A stretch of 64,000 nucleotides of DNA from Verrucomicrobiota bacterium. Lineage in GTDB: Bacteria > Verrucomicrobiota > Verrucomicrobiia > Limisphaerales > JAXMHQ01. The stretch is taken from the NCBI GenBank assembly GCA_046346665.1, contig JAXMHQ010000011.1, positions 55,147 to 119,146 of the forward strand, given 5' to 3'. Under the pieces are notes generated by a model that was given only the letters and a program-made list of their open reading frames with translations, did no database searches and had not been told where the DNA came from. Shown one piece after another: positions 2,824-13,443 of the stretch; within the stretch, counting starts at the first letter, position 1, and each line of letters begins with the position of its first letter. The translations under genes and the position numbers were made by a program.

Positions 2824-4635
2824 ATGGAAATCGGCACTCATCGCCCCCGCAACGTCGGCTGGGCCCGGGCCGCGGCGCTGCTCTACGGCGACTGGGGCAC
2901 CAGCAAAGCCTACGTCATCGGCCTCGCTTTCGTCGCGGCCGGCTATTCCTCGTTCCCCATCATCCTTGCCGTCTGCGCCCTGACCGGCCTGGTCGGATAC
3001 AATTACATCATCATCTGCCGCCATTTCCCTGACGGCGGGGGCGTGTATTCGGCCGCGCGAGAACAAAGTCGCGTCCTGGCCGTCCTCGGATCCCTCCTGC
3101 TCCTGGCCGATTTCATCGTCACGGCGGCGATGAGTTGCTGGGATGCGATGCTGTATTTCGGTGTGCCTGGGGAATACCTGCGGCTGGCGACGATCGGGTG
3201 CATTTTGCTTATCGGCTACATCAATTATTTCGGTCCGAAACACTCCGGCAGTTTAGCGGTCACGCTGGCCATTCCCATGGTGCTGGTGGTCGTTTTCATT
3301 GTGGCGCTCAGCGTTCCGCACCTGACGCTCGCGCACCTCGAGCGGCCGCATTCGAGTTTCCGCGCCAACTGGGTCGCGTTCGTCGGCGTCATCCTTGCCC
3401 TCAGCGGCGTCGAGGCCATCGCCAATCTCACCGGCGTCATGAAACTCGACCCGGACGCCACCGCGGATGCGCCGCGCGTCGCGTCCACGTCGAAGAAGGC
3501 CATCTGGCCGGTCGCCATCGAGGTTGTGCTCGGCACCGCGCTGCTTGGGTGGGCGATGTTGTCGCTCCCGCAAACCTTCTCGGATGAATTGAAAGCCCGT
3601 TACGGCGACATGCTGCGGTTCCTCGGCGAGGAATACGGCACGATGTTCTGGAACCCGCATTTCGGCCACGTCTTCGGCGCCATCATCGGCCTCGTCGTCG
3701 GCATGCTGCTGCTCAGCGCCGTCAACACCGCGGTGGCCGCGATGATCGGGCTCATGTACATGCTGGCGCAGGACAAGGAAATGCCGCGCCCCTTCACCAG
3801 GCTCAACACTCACGGCGTGCCCTGGCTGCCGCTCATCGTCGCCATCGCCCTGCCTTCCATCCTCGTGCTCATCTCCGGCAACCTGGACGACCTTGCGGAC
3901 ATGTATGCCATCGGCGTGGTGGGGGCGATCACTGTGAACCTCGGCTCAAGCTGCTTCAACAAGCGGCTCAAGCTGAACTGGCGCGAATTCAGCATCATGC
4001 TCGTCACGTTCTGCATCCTGTTCTGCATCGAGGTGACGATCGCCAAGACCAAACCCGCCGCGTTGTTCTTCGCGGCCTGCGTGCTCGGCATCGGGTTCGC
4101 CCTGCGCTGGTATTCCATGAAGCGCGCCGGGGTGGAGACGGTGATTCTCTCGCGCGAAATGGCGGCGGTGATCCGGCCCGAACTGATGGACACCCTGCGA
4201 CCGAACTTCGCCCCGGGCCAGGCCATCCTCGTCGCCGCCCGCGGCATCACGCCCGTGCTCAAGTTCGCCCTCGAGGAAGCCAAACTGCGCAAAGGCAACC
4301 TCTACGTCCTCTACGTGAAACAACTCTCCGTCAACCTGCCCGGGCCCCTCGCCAGCAAGGAGCGTCCGCGATGGCAGAACGACCCGAATGCCGCCACGAT
4401 CATGTACGGCATGTTCGACCTCGCCCACGAATCCGGGATCACCGTCCTGCCGCTTTACGCGGTCAGCGACAATCCCGCAGGCACCATCCTCGACATCACC
4501 GCCACCCTGGGCGTCGACATCCTCATGCTCGGTTCGCCTCATCGCGGCGCCCTGACCAAGCTGCTCCGTGGCGACGTCGTGACCGAGGTCGCGGCCAACC
4601 TGCCGGAGAACATTCAGCTCGTGATTCACAGCTGA
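2824..4635 (+). CDS. APC-superfamily transporter fused to a C-terminal universal stress protein (USP) domain
   Basis: 603-aa ORF. The N-terminal ~430 aa contain ~11-12 hydrophobic helices, with TM1 motif LYGDWGTSKAYVIGLAF. The C-terminal ~150 aa (ILVAARGITPVLKFALEEAKLRKGNLYVLYVKQ ... VDILMLGSPHRGALTKLLRGDVVTEVAANLPENIQLVI) match the USP alpha/beta pattern. Confidence 0.7.
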   Translation: MEIGTHRPRNVGWARAAALLYGDWGTSKAYVIGLAFVAAGYSSFPIILAVCALTGLVGYNYIIICRHFPDGGGVYSAAREQSRVLAVLGSLLLLADFIVTAAMSCWDAMLYFGVPGEYLRLATIGCILLIGYINYFGPKHSGSLAVTLAIPMVLVVVFIVALSVPHLTLAHLERPHSSFRANWVAFVGVILALSGVEAIANLTGVMKLDPDATADAPRVASTSKKAIWPVAIEVVLGTALLGWAMLSLPQTFSDELKARYGDMLRFLGEEYGTMFWNPHFGHVFGAIIGLVVGMLLLSAVNTAVAAMIGLMYMLAQDKEMPRPFTRLNTHGVPWLPLIVAIALPSILVLISGNLDDLADMYAIGVVGAITVNLGSSCFNKRLKLNWREFSIMLVTFCILFCIEVTIAKTKPAALFFAACVLGIGFALRWYSMKRAGVETVILSREMAAVIRPELMDTLRPNFAPGQAILVAARGITPVLKFALEEAKLRKGNLYVLYVKQLSVNLPGPLASKERPRWQNDPNAATIMYGMFDLAHESGITVLPLYAVSDNPAGTILDITATLGVDILMLGSPHRGALTKLLRGDVVTEVAANLPENIQLVIHS

Positions 4636-4939: not shown

Positions 4940-5341
<402 letters not shown>

Positions 5342-5383
5342 GTTGAGTTTGAATTGAACCGAAAACCCCTGATCCCACAGATG

Positions 5384-6874
5384 AAAAAAATATTGTGTTT
5401 ATTGAGTTTCGCCGCTGTTTTGGCGGCGGGTTCCCTGACGATGCGGGCGGCGGACGCGCCTGCGGCGCCGGCGCCGAGTCTTGAGCAACGGGTGTCGTCG
5501 CTGGAAGCGTATGTGAACAACGGCGACCCGACCTCGGCGTTGAAAGACAAGGACGGGAAGATTCCGGACGGTTTGGTGACGCCGACGTCGGCGTCGGCAG
5601 GACCTGGACATAACGCGTGGATGATGGCCAGTTCTGCGCTGGTGCTGTTCATGACGTTGCCGGGGCTGTTCCTGTTCTACGGGGGCCTGGTGCGGCGGAA
5701 GAACATATTGTCGGTGGTGGCGCAATGCTTCGGGATCGCGGGGCTGGTGACGATCCTGTGGGTGGTGTTCGGCTACAGCATGGTGTTCGCCGACGGGGCG
5801 GACATCATCAAGGGAGTGGTGGGGAACATGAAGTTCTACTTTTTGGCGGGAGTGGATTCTGCGCCGAACACGAACTACGCGTATTGGGTGTCGCACAACG
5901 TGTTCAGCATGTATCAGCTGATGTTTGCGATCATCACGCCGGCGCTGATATTGGGAGCGATTGCCGAGCGCATCAAGTTCAGTTCGATGCTGCTGTTCAT
6001 GGGATTGTGGATGGTGATTGTGTATTTTCCGCTGGCGCACATGGTGTGGGGGGTGAATGGGGCGATGAACGGCGTGTGGAACGCGGGGGCGTCGATCAAG
6101 GCGATTGATTTTGCGGGCGGGACGGTGGTGCACATGTCGTCCGGGTGGTCGGCATTGATCCTGTGTTTGATTTTGGGCAAGCGGCTGGGATTTCCGAAGG
6201 AGCCGATGCCGCCGCACAGCATGGTGTTGTGCGCGATTGGCACAGGGATGCTGTGGGTGGGATGGTATGGATTTAACGCGGGCAGCGCCGTGGCTGCGGA
6301 CGGGGTGGCGGCCAACGCGTTCATGACGACGACGGTGGCGACGGCGGTGGCATCGTTTGTGTGGCCGCTGGCGGAATGGATGTTCCGGGGCAAGCCGAGC
6401 GTGCTGGGCTATTGCTCGGGGGCTGTGGCCGGGCTGGTGGTGATCACGCCTGCGTGCGGTTTTGTGACGGTGAAGGGAGCGTTTCTGATTGGGATCGCGG
6501 CGGGGCTGATTCCGTGGTTCTTCTGTTTCAAGGTGAAGGGGTGGTTTGGGTATGACGACGCGCTGGACACGTTTGGAGTGCACGCGGTGGGCGGGACGCT
6601 GGGAGCGCTGCTGACGGGATTCCTGGCGCGCAACGCGGCGAACGCGAACCTGGCGACGAACCTGAAGGGATATGTGACGGACAGCCTGTTTCAACCGCTG
6701 GTGATCGAGCAGTTGAAAGCGATCGCAGTGACGCTGGTATTGGCGGTGGTGGGAACGATCATCATCGCGTATGTGGTGAAGGCGATCCTGGGCCTGCGGC
6801 CGAGCGAGGAAGTGGAAACGGTGGGCCTGGACCTCTCCGAACACGGCGAGGAAGGCTACCACGCCGAGGCATAA
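5384..6874 (+). CDS. amtB: Ammonium transporter AmtB with signal peptide
   Basis: ORF 5354..6874. MKKILCLLSFAAVLAAG signal peptide (ATG 5384). Motifs LPGLFLFYGGLVR, DFAGGTVVHMSSG, WYGFNAGS, FGVHAVGGTLGALLTG. Confidence 0.95.
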   Translation, partial: KKILCLLSFAAVLAAGSLTMRAADAPAAPAPSLEQRVSSLEAYVNNGDPTSALKDKDGKIPDGLVTPTSASAGPGHNAWMMASSALVLFMTLPGLFLFYGGLVRRKNILSVVAQCFGIAGLVTILWVVFGYSMVFADGADIIKGVVGNMKFYFLAGVDSAPNTNYAYWVSHNVFSMYQLMFAIITPALILGAIAERIKFSSMLLFMGLWMVIVYFPLAHMVWGVNGAMNGVWNAGASIKAIDFAGGTVVHMSSGWSALILCLILGKRLGFPKEPMPPHSMVLCAIGTGMLWVGWYGFNAGSAVAADGVAANAFMTTTVATAVASFVWPLAEWMFRGKPSVLGYCSGAVAGLVVITPACGFVTVKGAFLIGIAAGLIPWFFCFKVKGWFGYDDALDTFGVHAVGGTLGALLTGFLARNAANANLATNLKGYVTDSLFQPLVIEQLKAIAVTLVLAVVGTIIIAYVVKAILGLRPSEEVETVGLDLSEHGEEGYHAEA

Positions 6875-6885
6875 GATGACGGGGA

Positions 6886-7076
6886 GGGACGCCGTCCCGG
6901 CGTCCCTGTCCCAAACGGCCGGAGAACACCCGCCGCACCGCAGGTCGAAAGACCCGGTGCGGCGGTTTTGTTTTGTGGGCCGGCGGGGACGCCAGCCCTC
7001 CCGTCGACGGGAGGGACGCCGTCCTCGGCGTCCCCATCATGTCGGAGGGATGTGTGGGACCGCGGGACGCGGTCCC
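6886..7076. repeat. Cluster of GC-rich hairpins/palindromes (GGGACGCC...GGCGTCCC word family)
   Basis: GGGACGCC/GGCGTCCC at 6886-6906 and 7013-7034. Perfect 20-nt palindrome CCCTCCCGTCGACGGGAGGG at 6996-7015. GGGACCGC/GCGGTCCC at 7056-7076. All lie in the gap between convergent amtB and the PP2C gene. Confidence 0.8.
6930..6975 (+). terminator. Rho-independent terminator after amtB
   Basis: Stem CCGCCGCACCG / CGGTGCGGCGG (6930-6940 / 6955-6965) followed by TTTTGTTTTG. Confidence 0.65.
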
Positions 7077-7089
7077 TCCCGGGGAGTGA

Positions 7090-7980
7090 TTACGCCACCC
7101 GGATTACCAGGGCGGTGGTGTTGTCGCGGCCGCTGTGGGCGACGGCGGCGTCGACGAGCAGCCGGGCGGGGTTGGTCCCCGGATCCGTGGCGGCGGCGGA
7201 TCGGAGCAATTCCTCGATCTGCTGGTTGTAAAGCCCGTCAACCAGTCCGTCGGTGCACAGCAGGAACATGTCGCCGGGTTCATACGACACGGCGCCGACC
7301 TGCGGGTCCACAAACTGATTCGATCCGCCCAGCGCCTTTTGAAGCGCGTGCCGGCGCGGGTGGGCCCGTGCCTCGCGTTCATTGATCTGGCCGTTCCGAA
7401 ACAGCCAGCCGACGTGGGTGTCGTCGTCGCTCAACTGCCGGATACCTCCCTGGGCTGGCAGGTAATAGACCCTGCTGTCGCCGATGTGGCCAAAATACAT
7501 CCAGGACGGGGTGAACCAGCAAAGGCTCAGAGTCGTCTCCATCCCGTGGCATTCCTCGTCGCTGCTGCCCAGGTAGGCGAGCGCGCGATGGATCTGGGAA
7601 AACAACTCCTCCAGGACGTCCTCGAATCCCGCGTCCCAGCCCGCCGCGGTGTGCTGGAAGGATTTTGGTAGCAGCACGGTGATTTTCTCCACCGCGACCT
7701 GGCTGGCGTATTCGCCCGATTTGGCGCCGCCCATGCCGTCGCTGACCGCGAACACAAAATCCATCGTGCGCGCCGTGGCCTGGCCGAGCCGGCCCAGGTG
7801 GTGCACTTCGCGCCCGTCGAATCTCAGGCCGAGAAACGAATCTTCATTGTTCGATCGCACTCGGCCGCGGTCCGTCCACCCGAACCAGTTCAAGGTCACT
7901 GGCGGCGGGGCGGGGCGCTGCGGATCTTTGGCCGGCCGGTCAGCCGGGCTGTGGGAGGAGTGTGGCGAGTTCAAAATCAA
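7090..7980 (-). CDS. PP2C-family Ser/Thr protein phosphatase
   Basis: Motifs RSNNEDSF, FAVSDGMGGAKSGEYAS, LLCTDGLVDGL, SGRDNTTALVIRV. The ORF-track start at 7980 is TTG and overlaps the upstream kinase-like gene by 41 nt. An alternative GTG start at 7899 removes the overlap. Confidence 0.9.
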   Translation of the reverse strand: MILNSPHSSHSPADRPAKDPQRPAPPPVTLNWFGWTDRGRVRSNNEDSFLGLRFDGREVHHLGRLGQATARTMDFVFAVSDGMGGAKSGEYASQVAVEKITVLLPKSFQHTAAGWDAGFEDVLEELFSQIHRALAYLGSSDEECHGMETTLSLCWFTPSWMYFGHIGDSRVYYLPAQGGIRQLSDDDTHVGWLFRNGQINEREARAHPRRHALQKALGGSNQFVDPQVGAVSYEPGDMFLLCTDGLVDGLYNQQIEELLRSAAATDPGTNPARLLVDAAVAHSGRDNTTALVIRVA

Positions 7981-8338
7981 TCAGGCAAAAACGGCCGTCC
8001 GATTGCCGGTAAGTGACGTTGCGCATGTCCGGGTCGTCGTGCCGCACCCCGAAGGGCAGCAATTCGGCGAATAATTCCTTGACCCGCTGCTCGTCCAGGT
8101 GCTCCACCCGGCTGCCGCAATTCGTCGTGACAATCCGCAGCCGGGCCGGGTCCGATTCCAGGAGCCGAGGCACAAAATTGCAGCCGCGTTCCTCGAGGAT
8201 TTTCAGGATCCGGACCTCGTTTTCAAATCGCTTCGCCGCGTCCGGGCCGTGGTACACCTTGATCACCCGGCCGTCAAAGGTCAGGTTCACAGTCGCTCTC
8301 AAGGTGTCTTTGACTTTCAGCATCAAGCAGGCCCGCAT
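7940..8338 (-). CDS. Minimal protein-kinase-like protein (132 aa)
   Basis: ATG 8338. The kinase core motifs occur in order: VIKVY (beta3 Lys), FENEVRIL (alphaC Glu), IVTTNCG (hinge), HDDPDMRNV (HxDxxxxN catalytic loop), LIDFE (DFG equivalent). The protein stops 9 residues after the IDFE motif. Confidence 0.55.
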   Translation of the reverse strand: MRACLMLKVKDTLRATVNLTFDGRVIKVYHGPDAAKRFENEVRILKILEERGCNFVPRLLESDPARLRIVTTNCGSRVEHLDEQRVKELFAELLPFGVRHDDPDMRNVTYRQSDGRFCLIDFELATLLPQPG

Positions 8339-8406
8339 CGCAGCCCGGACTCAGTATGTCGCATCCGGGGCCGGATGCAATGTCGGGTGCCGGAGGGGGT
8401 TTAAAC

Positions 8407-8561
8407 CACGGATGAACACGGGTGAACACGGATGGGGAAGGTTGACGCGAATTGACACGAATTTTCAGGGGCTTGCTCCGCGATCTGACGATGGCGGCTG
8501 TGGGGGTTGATCAGGGCTCGACGGAGTCTCGCCCCACCAGTTGGCGACAATTCGCGTCACG
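8407..8561. repeat. Composite intergenic repeat (CACGGATGAACACGG words, TTGACGCGAATTG inverted repeat, 28-mer TCAGGGCTCGACGGAGTCTCGCCCCACC)
   Basis: The 28-mer at 8511-8538 is identical to 11101-11128. TTGACGCGAATTG (8442-) pairs with CAATTCGCGTCA (8548-). The same word occurs at 2471-2480 / 2517-2526 and 11002-11018. Confidence 0.85.
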
Positions 8562-8775
8562 ATTTTTAGTTCAGATCGGTGTTCGTCCGTTGTCGAAATA
8601 GCCGCCAATTCCGGCTGAATGGTTTCGATCAGACTGGGCAACAATCGACAGTAAAACGGGCCGCCGGGCGGCTTGAAATCGGGTACCGAAAAAATGATTT
8701 GCCCCGGGTTAAACTGTTGGGATTGGGGGTGAAGCAAAAGAGGGGGACAAGATGCCAAAGTATGTTCTGGCCGGA

Positions 8776-8791
8776 CGGCACCTGGGCTGCT
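8776..8791 (+). promoter_or_regulatory. Sigma-54 (-24/-12) type promoter upstream of glnII
   Basis: CGGCACCTGGGCTGCT has GG-N10-GC spacing and lies 91 nt upstream of ATG 8882. It shares GGCAnCnGGGCTGCTAA with the glnK promoter at 4880. Confidence 0.55.
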
Positions 8792-8881
8792 AAGGATAAC
8801 GCGCGTTGATTTGAAATTGTTGCGTTTGGCTCAATTTGATCAACACCAAACCATAACCTTACATACAAATCCCCCACGCAC

Positions 8882-9907
8882 ATGGCGAAGTATAAACTGG
8901 AATATATATGGCTGGACGGTTATCAACCCGTCGCCAATCTCCGCGGCAAAACCCAGGTCAAGGAATTCGACAGCTTTCCGAAGCTCGAACAGCTCCCGAT
9001 GTGGGGCTTCGACGGCAGTTCGACCCGCCAGGCGGAGGGTCACAGCTCGGATTGCATGCTGAAACCCGTCGCGGTGTATCCGGACGTCACCAAGACCAAC
9101 GCCGGCCTGGTCATGTGCGAAGTCATGATGCCGGACGGCAAGACGCCGCATCCGAGCAACGCGCGCGCGACGATCCTCGACGATCCCGGCGCCTGGTTCG
9201 GTTTCGAGCAGGAATATTTTCTTTACAAGGACGGCGCCCCGCTCGGGTTCCCGGCCGGCGGCGGTTTCCCGCCTCCGCAGGGTGAGTACTACACCGGCGT
9301 CGGCTACAAAAACGTGGGCTGCATCGCCCGCGAGATTGTCGACACGCATCTCGATCTCTGTCTCGCCGCCGGCATCAACCACGAAGGCATCAACGCCGAA
9401 GTGGCGAAGGGCCAGTGGGAATTCCAGATCTTCGGCAAGGGTTCCAAGACCGCGGCCGACCAGATGTGGATGGCGCGCTACATCCTGCTCCGCCTCTGTG
9501 AAAAATACGGCGTGGACGTGAACTTCCATTGCAAACCCCTCGGCAAGGATGTCGACTGGAACGGCTCCGGCATGCACACCAACTTCTCGACGACGCACAT
9601 GCGCGAAGTCGGCGGCAAAGCCTACTTCGAAGCCCTCATGGCCGCGTTCGACAAATACAAGAACGAACACATCGCGGTCTACGGCCCGGACAATCACCTG
9701 CGCCTCACCGGCCTGCACGAAACGCAGTCGATCGACAAGTTCAACTACGGCGTGGCCAACCGCGGCGCCTCGGTCCGCGTCCCCCACAGTTTCGTCAACA
9801 ACGGCTACAAGGGTTACCTCGAAGACCGACGTCCGAATTCGCAGGGCGACCCCTACAAGATCACCAGCCGCATCCTCCAGACGATCGCCACCGTCCCGAC
9901 GAAGTAA
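8882..9907 (+). CDS. glnII: Glutamine synthetase type II (eukaryote-like GSII)
   Basis: 341 aa. MAKYKLEYIWLDG..., GFEQEYFL, NAEVAKGQWEFQI, NGSGMHTNFS, NRGASVRVP: diagnostic GSII length and motifs. Confidence 0.95.
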   Translation: MAKYKLEYIWLDGYQPVANLRGKTQVKEFDSFPKLEQLPMWGFDGSSTRQAEGHSSDCMLKPVAVYPDVTKTNAGLVMCEVMMPDGKTPHPSNARATILDDPGAWFGFEQEYFLYKDGAPLGFPAGGGFPPPQGEYYTGVGYKNVGCIAREIVDTHLDLCLAAGINHEGINAEVAKGQWEFQIFGKGSKTAADQMWMARYILLRLCEKYGVDVNFHCKPLGKDVDWNGSGMHTNFSTTHMREVGGKAYFEALMAAFDKYKNEHIAVYGPDNHLRLTGLHETQSIDKFNYGVANRGASVRVPHSFVNNGYKGYLEDRRPNSQGDPYKITSRILQTIATVPTK

Positions 9908-9931: not shown

Positions 9932-9966
9932 CAACGCGGCCCCTCACCGGGCCGCGTTGTTTTTTG
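9932..9966 (+). terminator. Rho-independent terminator after glnII
   Basis: Stem CAACGCGGCCC / GGGCCGCGTTG (9932-9942 / 9949-9959), loop CTCACC, then TTTTTT. Confidence 0.8.
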
Positions 9967-10146
9967 GGGGTGAAGTGATGGAGTGATGGAGTAGTGGAGT
10001 GGTGGAGTTACGTGCGGATCGTTCTCGTCCTCGTCCTCCTCCTCGTCCTCGAAAACAGGTCCCGAGGACGAGGACGAGCACGAGGACGAGCACGATGGGA
10101 TTTCGTTCCAGGATTCCATCACTCCAATTCGTCATTCGTCATTCGC
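9967..10146. repeat. Simple-word repeats and hairpin (GGAGTGATGGAGT words; CTCGTCCTCGTCC / GAGGACGAGGACGAG hairpin; GTCATTC x2)
   Basis: 10024-10051 pairs with 10063-10090 (~26 of 28 bp). Tandem GTGATGGAGT-type words at 9972-10005. A CGTCCTCGTC word also occurs at 16040-16070. Confidence 0.8.
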
Positions 10147-11145: not shown

Positions 11146-11796
11146 TCAGCGGCGGACGGCGCGGGAGGCCGCGGCGACGAATTCCGCCGCGCGGCGCGTC
11201 AGCTCCGGCCAGTTCGATTCCTGCAGTAATTTCGCGGCTACCAGCGACCCCCCGACGCCGACCGCCGCGCAGCCTGCGTTGAGAAATTCCGCCACGTTGC
11301 CCACGTCCACCCCGCCTGTGGGAACGATTTTCAAATGCGGCAGCGGCGCGCGCAGGGCCTTGATGTAGCCGGGCCCCAGGCCGTCCGCGGGAAAAATCTT
11401 CACGAAATCGGCCCCCGCCTCATGAGCACGCTGCGCTTCGGTGGGCGTGTAGGCGCCCAGCATGACCGGGCGGTCTGATTTCCGGGCGACGGCGACCAGC
11501 TCCGGCCGGCAGATCGGGCTGACGACGAATTCCGCCCCGGCCTCGATCGCCGCGGCGCAGGTTGCTTCGTCGAGCACCGTTCCCACACCGATCAGGGCGC
11601 GGGCGCCAAGCGCGCGCGACGCCTCGCGGATCGCCGCGATGGCGTTCGGCGTCGTCAGGGTGATTTCAATGGCCACGACGCCGCCGGCCAGCAGCGCCTC
11701 CGAAAGCGGCAGCACCTGTTCGGCTTTTTGCGCGCGCACCACCGCGATGATTCCCGGGTGGGTCAGCAATGAAATGATTTCAGACTTCGATCGCAT
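11146..11796 (-). CDS. eda: 2-dehydro-3-deoxyphosphogluconate (KDPG) / KHG aldolase
   Basis: ATG 11796 within ORF 11146..11913. IIAVVRA, IEITLTTPNA, IGVGTVL, FVVSP and VKIFPA match the Eda family pattern. Confidence 0.85.
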   Translation of the reverse strand: MRSKSEIISLLTHPGIIAVVRAQKAEQVLPLSEALLAGGVVAIEITLTTPNAIAAIREASRALGARALIGVGTVLDEATCAAAIEAGAEFVVSPICRPELVAVARKSDRPVMLGAYTPTEAQRAHEAGADFVKIFPADGLGPGYIKALRAPLPHLKIVPTGGVDVGNVAEFLNAGCAAVGVGGSLVAAKLLQESNWPELTRRAAEFVAAASRAVRR

Positions 11797-11955
11797 GGGC
11801 AGATTAAACCAAAACCGGCAGGGTTCGGGAAAGCCAGAAGGCGTGGAGATCGCGCGAAGGATGCAAAGGGGGCGAAGTGGGAATGGCCTCGATTTACCCC
11901 GGGCATCCCTCAATCCCCCCCTTCGCTCCCGTCGCGTCCTTCGCGCGACATCTCC

Positions 11956-13443
11956 TTACTTTCGCAGCCCGTACCGCTGGATGCGCGAGGCGAGGGTGGT
12001 GGGGCGCATGCCGAGCAGGGCGGCGGCGCCGTCCGGGCCGTAGAGTTGCCCACCGGTTTGTTCCAGTGCGCGGGCGATGACTTCGCGCTCCTGCCGTTTC
12101 AAATCGGTCAGCGCCTGGCCGTCCACTTCCGGCGCCGGCGCCGCCGCCTTCCGGCCGGCCGCCAGCGAATCGCGGCTCAGCGCGAATTCCAGCCGGCCTT
12201 TGCTCGCCTGCAGAATCATCGCCCGCTCGATCACGTTTTGCAGTTCCCGCACATTGCCCGGCCAGTCGTAGGATTCCAATTGCCGGAGCTGGGCCGGGAA
12301 CAGGCGCGGTGCCCGGGCGCCGAGCCGTTGCGCGGATTGTTGAAGGAAAAATTCCGCCAGCGGCGCGATGTCCTCCCGGCGTTCGCGCAGCGGCGGCAGT
12401 TCAATCGGAAACACGCTCAGCCGGAAATACAGGTCCTGGCGGAAATGGCCCGCGCGCGCCTCGGCGTGCAGGTCCCGATTCGTGGCGGCAATCAGACGGA
12501 TATCCACCGTCCGGGTCTTTTCCTCGCCGACCTTCTCGAACTGGCCTTCCTGCAGCACTCGCAGCAGCTTCGCCTGGAGATCCAGCGGAATCTCGCCCAC
12601 CTCGTCCAGGAACAGCGTCCCGCCATGCGCCAGTTCGAATCGGCCGGTGCGATCCTTCACCGCCCCCGTGAACGCGCCCTTCACATGGCCGAAGAATTCG
12701 CTCTCGAACAAATCCTTTGGGATGCTGGCGCAATTCACCCGCACCAGCGGCTTGTCCCGGCGCGCGCTGTTCTCGTGAATCGCCCGCGCCACCAACTCCT
12801 TGCCGGTGCCGGATTCCCCCAGGATCAACACCCCCGCCGGCGTGGGCGCCACCACCCGGATCTGCTCCAGCACCTTTTTCAAGGCGTCGCTCCGGCCGAT
12901 GATGCTGCCGAAATTCGATTGCGACCGGACTTCGTCGAGCAGCCATTCGTTCTCGCGCTCAAGGGCCTTGGTCTTCTCGATGCACACCAGCGCGCCGATT
13001 GTCCCGACAATCCGCCCCTGTGCGTCCAGGTAGGGCGTTGCCATCACCTGGACCCAGCGCCGGCCGCCGCCTTTTTGCAGCAGCTCGTGCTCGTACATCT
13101 CGCACTTGCCCGACAGCCGTTCGCTCAGCCGCCGCCTCTGCTGCGGCCATTCCTCGGGCGCCAGCAGCAGCTCGTAGCTTGTCTTTCCAACCAGCTCGTC
13201 CTTCGTGTAGCCGGTGATGTCGCAGAACCGCCCGTTCGCATACACCACCCGGCTCTCTTCATCCGTGATCACCAGCCCCTCCGCCAGGCTCTCCAGCACC
13301 GTCCGGAAAAATTCCTCCCGGCCCGCCCGCGCCTGCTCCCACAATTCGCGCCCCCGGCGCCGCACCTCCCGCTCACGCCGGCCCAGCAACTCCGTGTCCG
13401 AAGACACCGCCGCCTTCACAGATCCCTGGCTCGATTTCGTCAT
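11956..13443 (-). CDS. Sigma-54-dependent transcriptional activator with N-terminal PAS domain (no receiver domain)
   Basis: PAS (ITDEESRVVYANGRFCDITGYTKDELVG). AAA+ Walker A GESGTGKELVARAIH. Sigma-54 contact motif GHVKGAFTGA. C-terminal Fis-type HTH AAALLGMRPTTLASRIQRYGL. Confidence 0.9.
   Translation of the reverse strand: MTKSSQGSVKAAVSSDTELLGRREREVRRRGRELWEQARAGREEFFRTVLESLAEGLVITDEESRVVYANGRFCDITGYTKDELVGKTSYELLLAPEEWPQQRRRLSERLSGKCEMYEHELLQKGGGRRWVQVMATPYLDAQGRIVGTIGALVCIEKTKALERENEWLLDEVRSQSNFGSIIGRSDALKKVLEQIRVVAPTPAGVLILGESGTGKELVARAIHENSARRDKPLVRVNCASIPKDLFESEFFGHVKGAFTGAVKDRTGRFELAHGGTLFLDEVGEIPLDLQAKLLRVLQEGQFEKVGEEKTRTVDIRLIAATNRDLHAEARAGHFRQDLYFRLSVFPIELPPLRERREDIAPLAEFFLQQSAQRLGARAPRLFPAQLRQLESYDWPGNVRELQNVIERAMILQASKGRLEFALSRDSLAAGRKAAAPAPEVDGQALTDLKRQEREVIARALEQTGGQLYGPDGAAALLGMRPTTLASRIQRYGLRK

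Follow-up and report, generated by a model that had tools for sequence, protein, structure and literature searches.

A minimal kinase-like domain coupled to a PP2C phosphatase beside nitrogen-assimilation genes in Verrucomicrobiota and Planctomycetota

The window analysed here is a stretch of 64,000 nt from a Verrucomicrobiota bacterium (Limisphaerales; JAXMHQ01; assembly GCA_046346665.1, contig JAXMHQ010000011.1, positions 55,147-119,146 of the forward strand). It encodes a very small kinase-like protein, hereafter the mini-kinase, whose gene lies next to that of a PP2C phosphatase and is divergent from the gene of a GlnII-type glutamine synthetase (GS). Our results slightly favored the view that the mini-kinase is an active minimal kinase which, together with the PP2C, forms a reversible switch on nitrogen assimilation, with GlnII as the leading target and P-II as the second. 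The data on which this view is built are a kinase fold, the conservation of the catalytic residues, purifying selection, the coupling or fusion of the domain to PP2C, and a neighbourhood of GS and P-II genes. The gene was delimited as follows.

7940 to 8338, minus strand: mini kinase-like gene, an open reading frame (ORF) of 132 aa containing only subdomains I-VII of a eukaryotic protein kinase (ePK)
7940 to 8323, minus strand: likely coding sequence of the mini-kinase, starting with M6 at 8323 and giving 127 aa

The ORF contained the motif residues V25-I-K27-V-Y, E39-N-E41-V, H100-D-D102-P-D-M-R-N107-V and I120-D121-F-E123, which stood in the order and spacing of kinases, and it ended with G132, nine residues past E123. 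The β3 Lys, the αC Glu, the HxDxxxxN loop and the IDFE motif, which the original prediction had read in this order from 7940-8338, were all present, their motif residues were invariant in the family, and the motif match was far above chance. The length of 132 aa given in that prediction was correct for the ORF but not for the likely product. Because conservation began at an invariant Met matching M6, the coding sequence is probably 7940..8323, with a product of 127 aa.

Among the profiles of Pfam, APH (PF01636) matched the mini-kinase with an E value of 2.3e-7 and 31.2 bits against a gathering cut-off of 23.2. The match spanned only positions 141-199 of the 239 in the profile, which correspond to the region of the catalytic and metal loops, and it therefore reflects the common catalytic core and not the APH architecture. 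The ABC1, Kdo and choline-kinase profiles matched weakly on the same stretch. NCBIfam gave only matches far below threshold (Bud32, LanKC and Kdo kinase), with the Bud32 model TIGR03724 reaching 23.8 bits where the cut-off is 125. Membership of the Bud32, Rio, Kdo kinase, LanKC and ABC1 families was rejected, as these matches to the common catalytic core were weak and sub-threshold. Neither Pfam nor NCBIfam held a model specific to the mini-kinase family.

A search of 5.8 billion clusters at 90% identity yielded 7,357 homologues of the mini-kinase at E≤1e-3, almost all of them 125-135 aa long. The best 120 of the 7,357 were 80-100% identical to the protein of the window, and the two commonest lengths among these 120 were 127 aa (42/120) and 132 aa (23/120). 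HMMER, run exhaustively on 1.84 billion representatives at 50% identity, returned only 282 matches, so the mini-kinase constitutes a tight family. Leaving aside fragments and mis-called starts, the longer HMMER matches were exclusively proteins of ~400 aa whose residues 2-125 formed the kinase, and those that were scanned with Pfam carried a C-terminal PP2C domain (P0134, P0135, P0140, P0150, P0154, P0167, P0178 and P0207 were all PP2C fusions, whole or cut short). Scanning GTDB with a single genome for each species showed at least 573 genomes that encoded a relative, and the carriers belonged to Verrucomicrobiota and Planctomycetota.

When 48 split-form sequences with 54-89% identity to the protein of the window were aligned, K27, E41, H100, D102, N107 and D121-F122-E123 proved invariant, and the equivalent catalytic residues were likewise invariant in 34 fused-form proteins of Planctomycetota. 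K10, T12 and R14, in the β1-β2 region, were also invariant in the 48 split forms. The comparison of orthologs by which the original prediction proposed to be judged thus confirmed both the length of ~125-135 aa and the K/E/H-D-N/D residues. Across the related loci the median identity to the window was highest for the GS (86%), followed by the mini-kinase (73%) and the PP2C (63%). The mini-kinase is under purifying selection, and it is more conserved than its own PP2C partner.

These data bear directly on the other suggestion of the original prediction, that the protein is a truncated pseudo-kinase, that is, a decayed and non-functional remnant of a full-length kinase in the window genome. The protein is very short for a kinase, and one distant member, P0208, lacks N107 and has DFQ replacing DFE. 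However, the short form and its catalytic residues were conserved in thousands of sequences from two phyla, no full-length kinase orthologue occurred among the homologues found (those longer matches that were checked being the PP2C fusions), and the AlphaFold2 model described below was a confident, compact fold. We regard truncation as refuted, and its remaining probability as negligible.

Two distant members, P0196 (Pirellulales; L173, 6001-6450) and P0208 (L174, 6001-6438), were 145-149 aa long with 41-43% identity, and both were orphans with neither PP2C nor GS nearby. Judged by its lost catalytic-loop Asn and its DFQ, P0208 may be a pseudokinase offshoot. Since these two members are orphans, the association with PP2C and GS is limited to the core clade (at least ~50% identity) and does not extend to the fringe of the superfamily. 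In both split and fused forms, three cysteines were invariant, namely C53 after αC, C74 in the hinge and C118, which precedes the DFE Asp by three residues; together they might serve as a redox or metal site. As for database labels, stand-alone mini-kinases were named "serine/threonine protein phosphatase" by NCBI (P0002, P0003, P0011, P0062, P0094 and others) and "Bud32" or "RdoA" by JGI, the label "Bud32" being an over-annotation, while fused proteins were annotated merely as "PP2C domain-containing protein". Thousands of entries of this family are systematically mis- or under-annotated.

Structure prediction with AlphaFold2 (alignment A1) gave a compact model of the mini-kinase with a predicted local distance difference test score (pLDDT) of 89.5 and a predicted template modelling score (pTM) of 0.83. 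The model consisted of β1-β3, a long αC helix (34-50), β4-β5, a helix at 83-91, the catalytic loop, two short strands, the DFE motif and a short conserved tail, with K27 located in the strand 24-29 and E41 in the helix 34-50. It displayed the N-lobe that defines protein kinase-like (PKL) folds, a five-stranded sheet with αC, followed by αE, the catalytic loop and β7-β8. Helix 83-91 was the sole helix past the hinge. The C-lobe core from αF onward and the activation segment were absent, the protein ending nine residues past the DFE.

Comparison of the model with the PDB by Foldseek gave 270 matches at E≤0.001, and all 50 of those listed were kinases or kinase-like domains. The best was the 173-aa RNA kinase Ark1 of G. 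acetivorans (8yv4/8yv5; ArkI below), with an E value of 7e-7, a query-normalised TM-score of 0.69 and 23% identity, followed by Rio2, Bud32/PRPK, CK2-alpha, WbdD and the kinase domain of LanKC. The Foldseek probability was 1.00 for ArkI, Rio2, Bud32/PRPK, CK2 and WbdD. A search of the PDB at the sequence level with the mini-kinase found no significant match (best kinase E=0.2). The kinase fold without a C-lobe, as originally predicted, was borne out by the APH profile match, the AlphaFold2 model, the Foldseek comparison and the invariant catalytic residues.

The partner of the mini-kinase is encoded immediately downstream.

7090 to 7980, minus strand: PP2C (PPM) phosphatase, Stp1/IreP-like, overlapping or abutting the 3' end of the mini-kinase gene

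Its product scored 176.9 bits against the Stp1/IreP-like model of NCBIfam. The start of the PP2C is uncertain, as the TTG at 7980 would give a 41-nt overlap with the mini-kinase gene and the GTG at 7899 a 40-nt gap. In relatives from Verrucomicrobiota the two genes overlapped by 4 nt or lay a few bases apart, and such overlap or abutment is compatible with translational coupling of kinase and PP2C. To place the pair in context, 167 non-redundant related loci were assembled from genomes, metagenomes and individual look-ups. Of the 159 loci with enough downstream sequence, 158 had the PP2C gene next to the mini-kinase gene on its downstream side and in the same orientation, or joined to it in frame. 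In Planctomycetota the usual form was a single kinase-PP2C protein of ~420 aa, which was also found in the complete genomes of Planctomicrobium isolates. The linker in the 34 fused proteins was 25-35 residues long, of low complexity and not conserved, and the metal-binding motifs of the PP2C were conserved. The fusion of the two genes is strong evidence that their products are a functional unit.

Both domains were well folded in the AlphaFold2 model of one fusion protein (P0412, alignment A2), in which the linker at 130-146 had a pLDDT below 50 and the overall pTM was 0.64; from these two values, no fixed packing of kinase and PP2C is predicted. The original prediction had proposed that the mini-kinase needs a partner, possibly the PP2C, to complete its active site. 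The partnership itself held, with the adjacency at nearly every locus and the natural fusions, whereas the completion of the active site by PP2C was not supported, given a variable and predicted-disordered linker, the low pTM of the fusion model and distant orphans without any PP2C. The PP2C or the linker as the missing C-lobe was likewise without support, although these data are not a strict refutation.

The genes surrounding the kinase-PP2C pair belong to nitrogen assimilation.

8882 to 9907, plus strand: glutamine synthetase of GlnII type (341 aa; 370 bits against NF041605), divergently oriented relative to the kinase operon
8776 to 8791, plus strand: sigma-54-type -24/-12 box, CGGCAC-N5-CTGCT, a match to the consensus that faces the GS gene ~90 nt before its ATG
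5354 to 6874, plus strand: ammonium transporter AmtB, its gene converging with that of the PP2C
4964 to 5341, plus strand: P-II (GlnB/GlnK), with its likely start at 5003 (MKKLEAII) and not at the GTG 4964

In the window, the kinase-PP2C pair is thus located between the divergent GlnII gene and the convergent glnB-amtB genes (4964-6874). GlnII was found within 1 kb upstream of the mini-kinase in 106 of the 129 loci with enough upstream sequence; its gene was divergent in 97 of these 106 (median distance ~310 bp) and co-directional in nine (median ~150 bp), and the association occurred in both phyla and in split and fused forms alike. The divergent GlnII is the strongest contextual link of the module and had been overlooked in the original prediction. 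P-II and AmtB were downstream in 46 of 115 loci (PP2C within 3 kb of glnB), mostly in Limisphaerales, and one further locus (L086) had P-II nearby in another arrangement. P-II is accordingly a secondary, lineage-restricted neighbour. The T-loop of the P-II in the window is YRGSEY, with Ser49 and Tyr51. The T-loop of the P-II beside the module was invariant and carried both residues, and Ser49 in particular was present in the neighbouring P-II of 52 of 53 related loci. Ser49 of P-II is the site of phosphorylation in cyanobacteria, and Tyr51 is the site of uridylylation in proteobacteria.

The sigma-54-type box (xGGCAC-N5-xTGCT) was found again in the kinase-GS intergenic regions of related loci, at least 41 out of 108, and this recurrence suggests that glnII is under NtrC/sigma-54 control in the carrier bacteria. 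A search of the kinase-GS intergenic region with Rfam found nothing relevant and no glutamine riboswitch, and a scan of 6800-9000 for sigma-70 promoters and terminators found sites no more numerous than in shuffled sequence. Further upstream on the plus strand, 151-1968 and 2824-4635 encode a second Amt with an N-terminal extension of ~150 aa and a fusion of an amino-acid permease with a universal stress protein, so the region is a larger nitrogen-uptake gene cluster. In one Verrucomicrobiota lineage (L087/L088, 9240-9629), a gene for a GGACT (gamma-glutamyl cyclotransferase-like) protein comes after the PP2C in what looks like one operon, which is a further link to glutamyl/glutamine metabolism.

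Taking these observations together, we propose the following mechanism. The mini-kinase would be a complete domain consisting of β1-β5, αC, one αE-like helix, the H-x-D-x4-N loop and the D-F-E loop, and it would act with the PP2C as one unit, either from coupled genes (Verrucomicrobiota) or as a flexibly linked polypeptide (Planctomycetota). ATP-Mg would be bound via K27/E41, N107 and D121, and the phosphate would be passed through D102 to a Ser or Thr of the target protein. The tethered PP2C would then take the phosphate off, giving a self-contained reversible switch, which, as the conserved neighbourhood indicates, may act in nitrogen assimilation. The most likely target would be the adjacent GlnII, which leads since no other neighbour is as conserved, a pattern that holds in different phyla and for either orientation of its gene; the alternative would be P-II at Ser49. 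That the substrate is a protein at all, and which protein it is, are presumed in this scheme. The boldest form of the proposal, that the mini-kinase (subdomains I-VII, ~125 aa) is catalytically competent and the smallest such protein kinase domain known, and that with its tethered PP2C it is a dedicated, bifunctional writer and eraser of phosphate on GlnII or P-II Ser49, is tentative and, to our judgment, doubtful.

Several points weigh against an active switch of this kind. We know of no kinase without αF that is active by itself, and ArkI, OspG/NleH and Bud32 all retain C-terminal helices. The Gly-rich loop (GxGxxG) is absent between β1 and β2 of the mini-kinase, where the invariant K10, T12 and R14 are found instead. 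The best Pfam match, APH, is a family largely of small-molecule kinases, and the solved structure closest to the predicted model is that of an RNA kinase. ATP binding and phosphotransfer by the mini-kinase are what we infer, and no fixed interface between kinase and PP2C is predicted in the fusion model. As to the target, ~18% of the loci had no GS within 1 kb, a minority had no nitrogen gene nearby (e.g. L002 and L090), and the gene neighbourhood is unable to separate GS from P-II or another target. The related loci were picked by similarity and are not phylogenetically independent.

The main rival to the switch is a mini-kinase that binds ATP or ADP as a nucleotide sensor, or hydrolyses ATP, and allosterically switches the PP2C, the target (GS or P-II) being phosphorylated by another kinase. 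The domain has none of the substrate-binding elements of protein kinases, it is permanently joined to one enzyme or translated together with it, and Bud32 and Rio, which are among its closest folds, act chiefly as ATPases, Bud32 hydrolysing ATP in KEOPS. Sensors and pseudokinases usually lose some of their catalytic residues, however, whereas the catalytic base D102, N107 and the full metal loop were invariant in two phyla; a long, variable and predicted-disordered linker is unsuited to tight allosteric coupling, and orphan members without PP2C exist. On this evidence we consider the nucleotide-sensing regulator rather unlikely.

An improbable alternative is that the mini-kinase phosphorylates a small molecule or an RNA, in the manner of APH, choline, Kdo or ArkI-like kinases, with a glutamine-linked metabolite or an RNA as substrate and the PP2C being unrelated or regulatory. 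All 48 family members examined matched Pfam APH and 38 of the 48 matched Kdo, and the best structural match was the tRNA 2'-kinase ArkI, which likewise has a DFE metal loop. Yet the profile matches were limited to the universal catalytic core, and the resemblance to ArkI amounted to 23% identity and a sequence E value of 0.2. Moreover, ArkI has HGQ, extra helices and a basic RNA-binding surface, while the mini-kinase has HxD, has no such C-terminal helices and belongs to a neutral to acidic family (median pI 6.0). Fusion to a protein phosphatase also suits a protein phosphorylation cycle far better. The PP2C fusion, the HxD loop and the neutral to acidic surface together make phosphorylation of small molecules or RNA less likely, and an ArkI-like RNA kinase in particular was judged unlikely.

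Comparison with known systems showed which features of the proposed kinase switch have precedents. ArkI, the archaeal tRNA 2'-kinase (PDB 8yv4/8yv5; AQ578/COG2112), resembles the mini-kinase in being small and ePK-like with a DFE metal loop. It lacks subdomains VIII and X, keeps IX and XI, and has HGQ replacing HxD (PMC9095486). Unlike the mini-kinase, it is 171-216 aa long and has a P-loop, the helices α6 and α7 (IX and XI) and a basic surface that binds RNA, and its gene is linked to that of a tRNA nucleotidyltransferase, whereas the mini-kinase is linked to PP2C and GS. The mini-kinase for its part possesses HxD, extends no further than subdomain VII and is neutral to acidic, and the sequence similarity between the two (E=0.2) is not significant. 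OspG and NleH are active kinases without subdomains VIII-XI, and the activity of OspG requires its bound partner E2~ubiquitin (PMC12756638). OspG is thus a precedent for a stripped-down, partner-dependent kinase as proposed here. OspG and NleH differ from the mini-kinase in being secreted type III virulence effectors of ~170-200 aa that operate inside host cells and lack a partner phosphatase, and the sequence similarity is again not significant (4lrj, E=0.4). Bud32/PRPK and Rio have close folds, no activation loop, an H-x-D-x4-N loop and a dependence on partners (Kae1/Cgi121 and the ribosome, respectively), but, at 200 aa or more, they include a helical C-lobe. No Kae1 or ribosome-biogenesis gene was found near the mini-kinase, the neighbours being PP2C, GS and AmtB. 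Since its sequence ends after subdomain VII, the mini-kinase is smaller than ArkI, OspG and NleH.

With respect to the pairing with a phosphatase, the Stk/Stp operons (PknB/PstP and PrkC/PrpC) resemble the module in that a Ser/Thr kinase is co-transcribed with an opposing PP2C, the two having common substrates. The Stk kinases are full Hanks-type domains of ~270 aa with a transmembrane segment and PASTA sensors, whereas the mini-kinase has 127 aa, is soluble, is located upstream of the PP2C and often fused to it, and comprises subdomains I-VII instead of I-XI. In cyanobacteria, the PP2C PphA dephosphorylates P-II-Ser49-P, and the P-II kinase has never been identified (PMC8042125). The window resembles this Ser49 cycle in that a PP2C is encoded beside glnB-amtB and the P-II has the T-loop YRGSEY with Ser49. 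It differs from the PphA system in that P-II adjacency was restricted to 46/115 loci and the link to GS was stronger; phosphorylation of P-II is a candidate activity of the module. Adenylylation by GlnE and the inactivating factors IF7/IF17 resemble our proposal as dedicated post-translational on/off controls of glutamine synthetase, but their chemistry and proteins are wholly different, and they target type I GS, the enzyme encoded next to the mini-kinase being of type II (GlnII).

Beyond the GS gene, the window contained a further structural element. A hairpin at 10018-10096 (and 9935-9966) had a stem of ~38 bp composed of the hexamer repeats (CGTCCT)n/(AGGACG)n, with a dG of -59 kcal/mol and a z-score of -5.8. 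It sits between the GS and BamE-like genes, just past a terminator-like GC hairpin with a T-run, and it yields spurious miRNA matches in Rfam. Three ORFs that follow had no Pfam match at E≤1e-3.

11462 to 12043, plus strand: ORF of 193 aa
12046 to 13563, plus strand: ORF of 505 aa
13613 to 15136, minus strand: ORF of 507 aa

No account of the mini-kinase family or of a GlnII-kinase-PP2C link was found in the literature, the coverage of which was incomplete, so that this absence is not proof. The protein-kinase-like fold and the pairing of a kinase with PP2C are already known. What is new is the unusual reduction of the kinase domain, the fixed kinase-PP2C architecture and the testable link to GlnII/P-II.

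If the mini-kinase is active, the minimal requirements of a protein kinase would be redefined, as neither an αF core, an activation segment nor a Gly-rich loop would be needed, and the domain would offer structural biologists and protein engineers a compact scaffold. Its activity would also show how glutamine synthetase can be controlled in two large and poorly studied environmental phyla. Should the proposed writing and erasing of phosphate on GlnII or P-II be true, Planctomycetota and Verrucomicrobiota would possess a third, new way of controlling glutamine synthetase after translation. Such a switch might further hint at the kind of enzyme behind the P-II kinase that was never identified, and the family provides a concrete, testable link to the long-standing question of the P-II Ser49 kinase.

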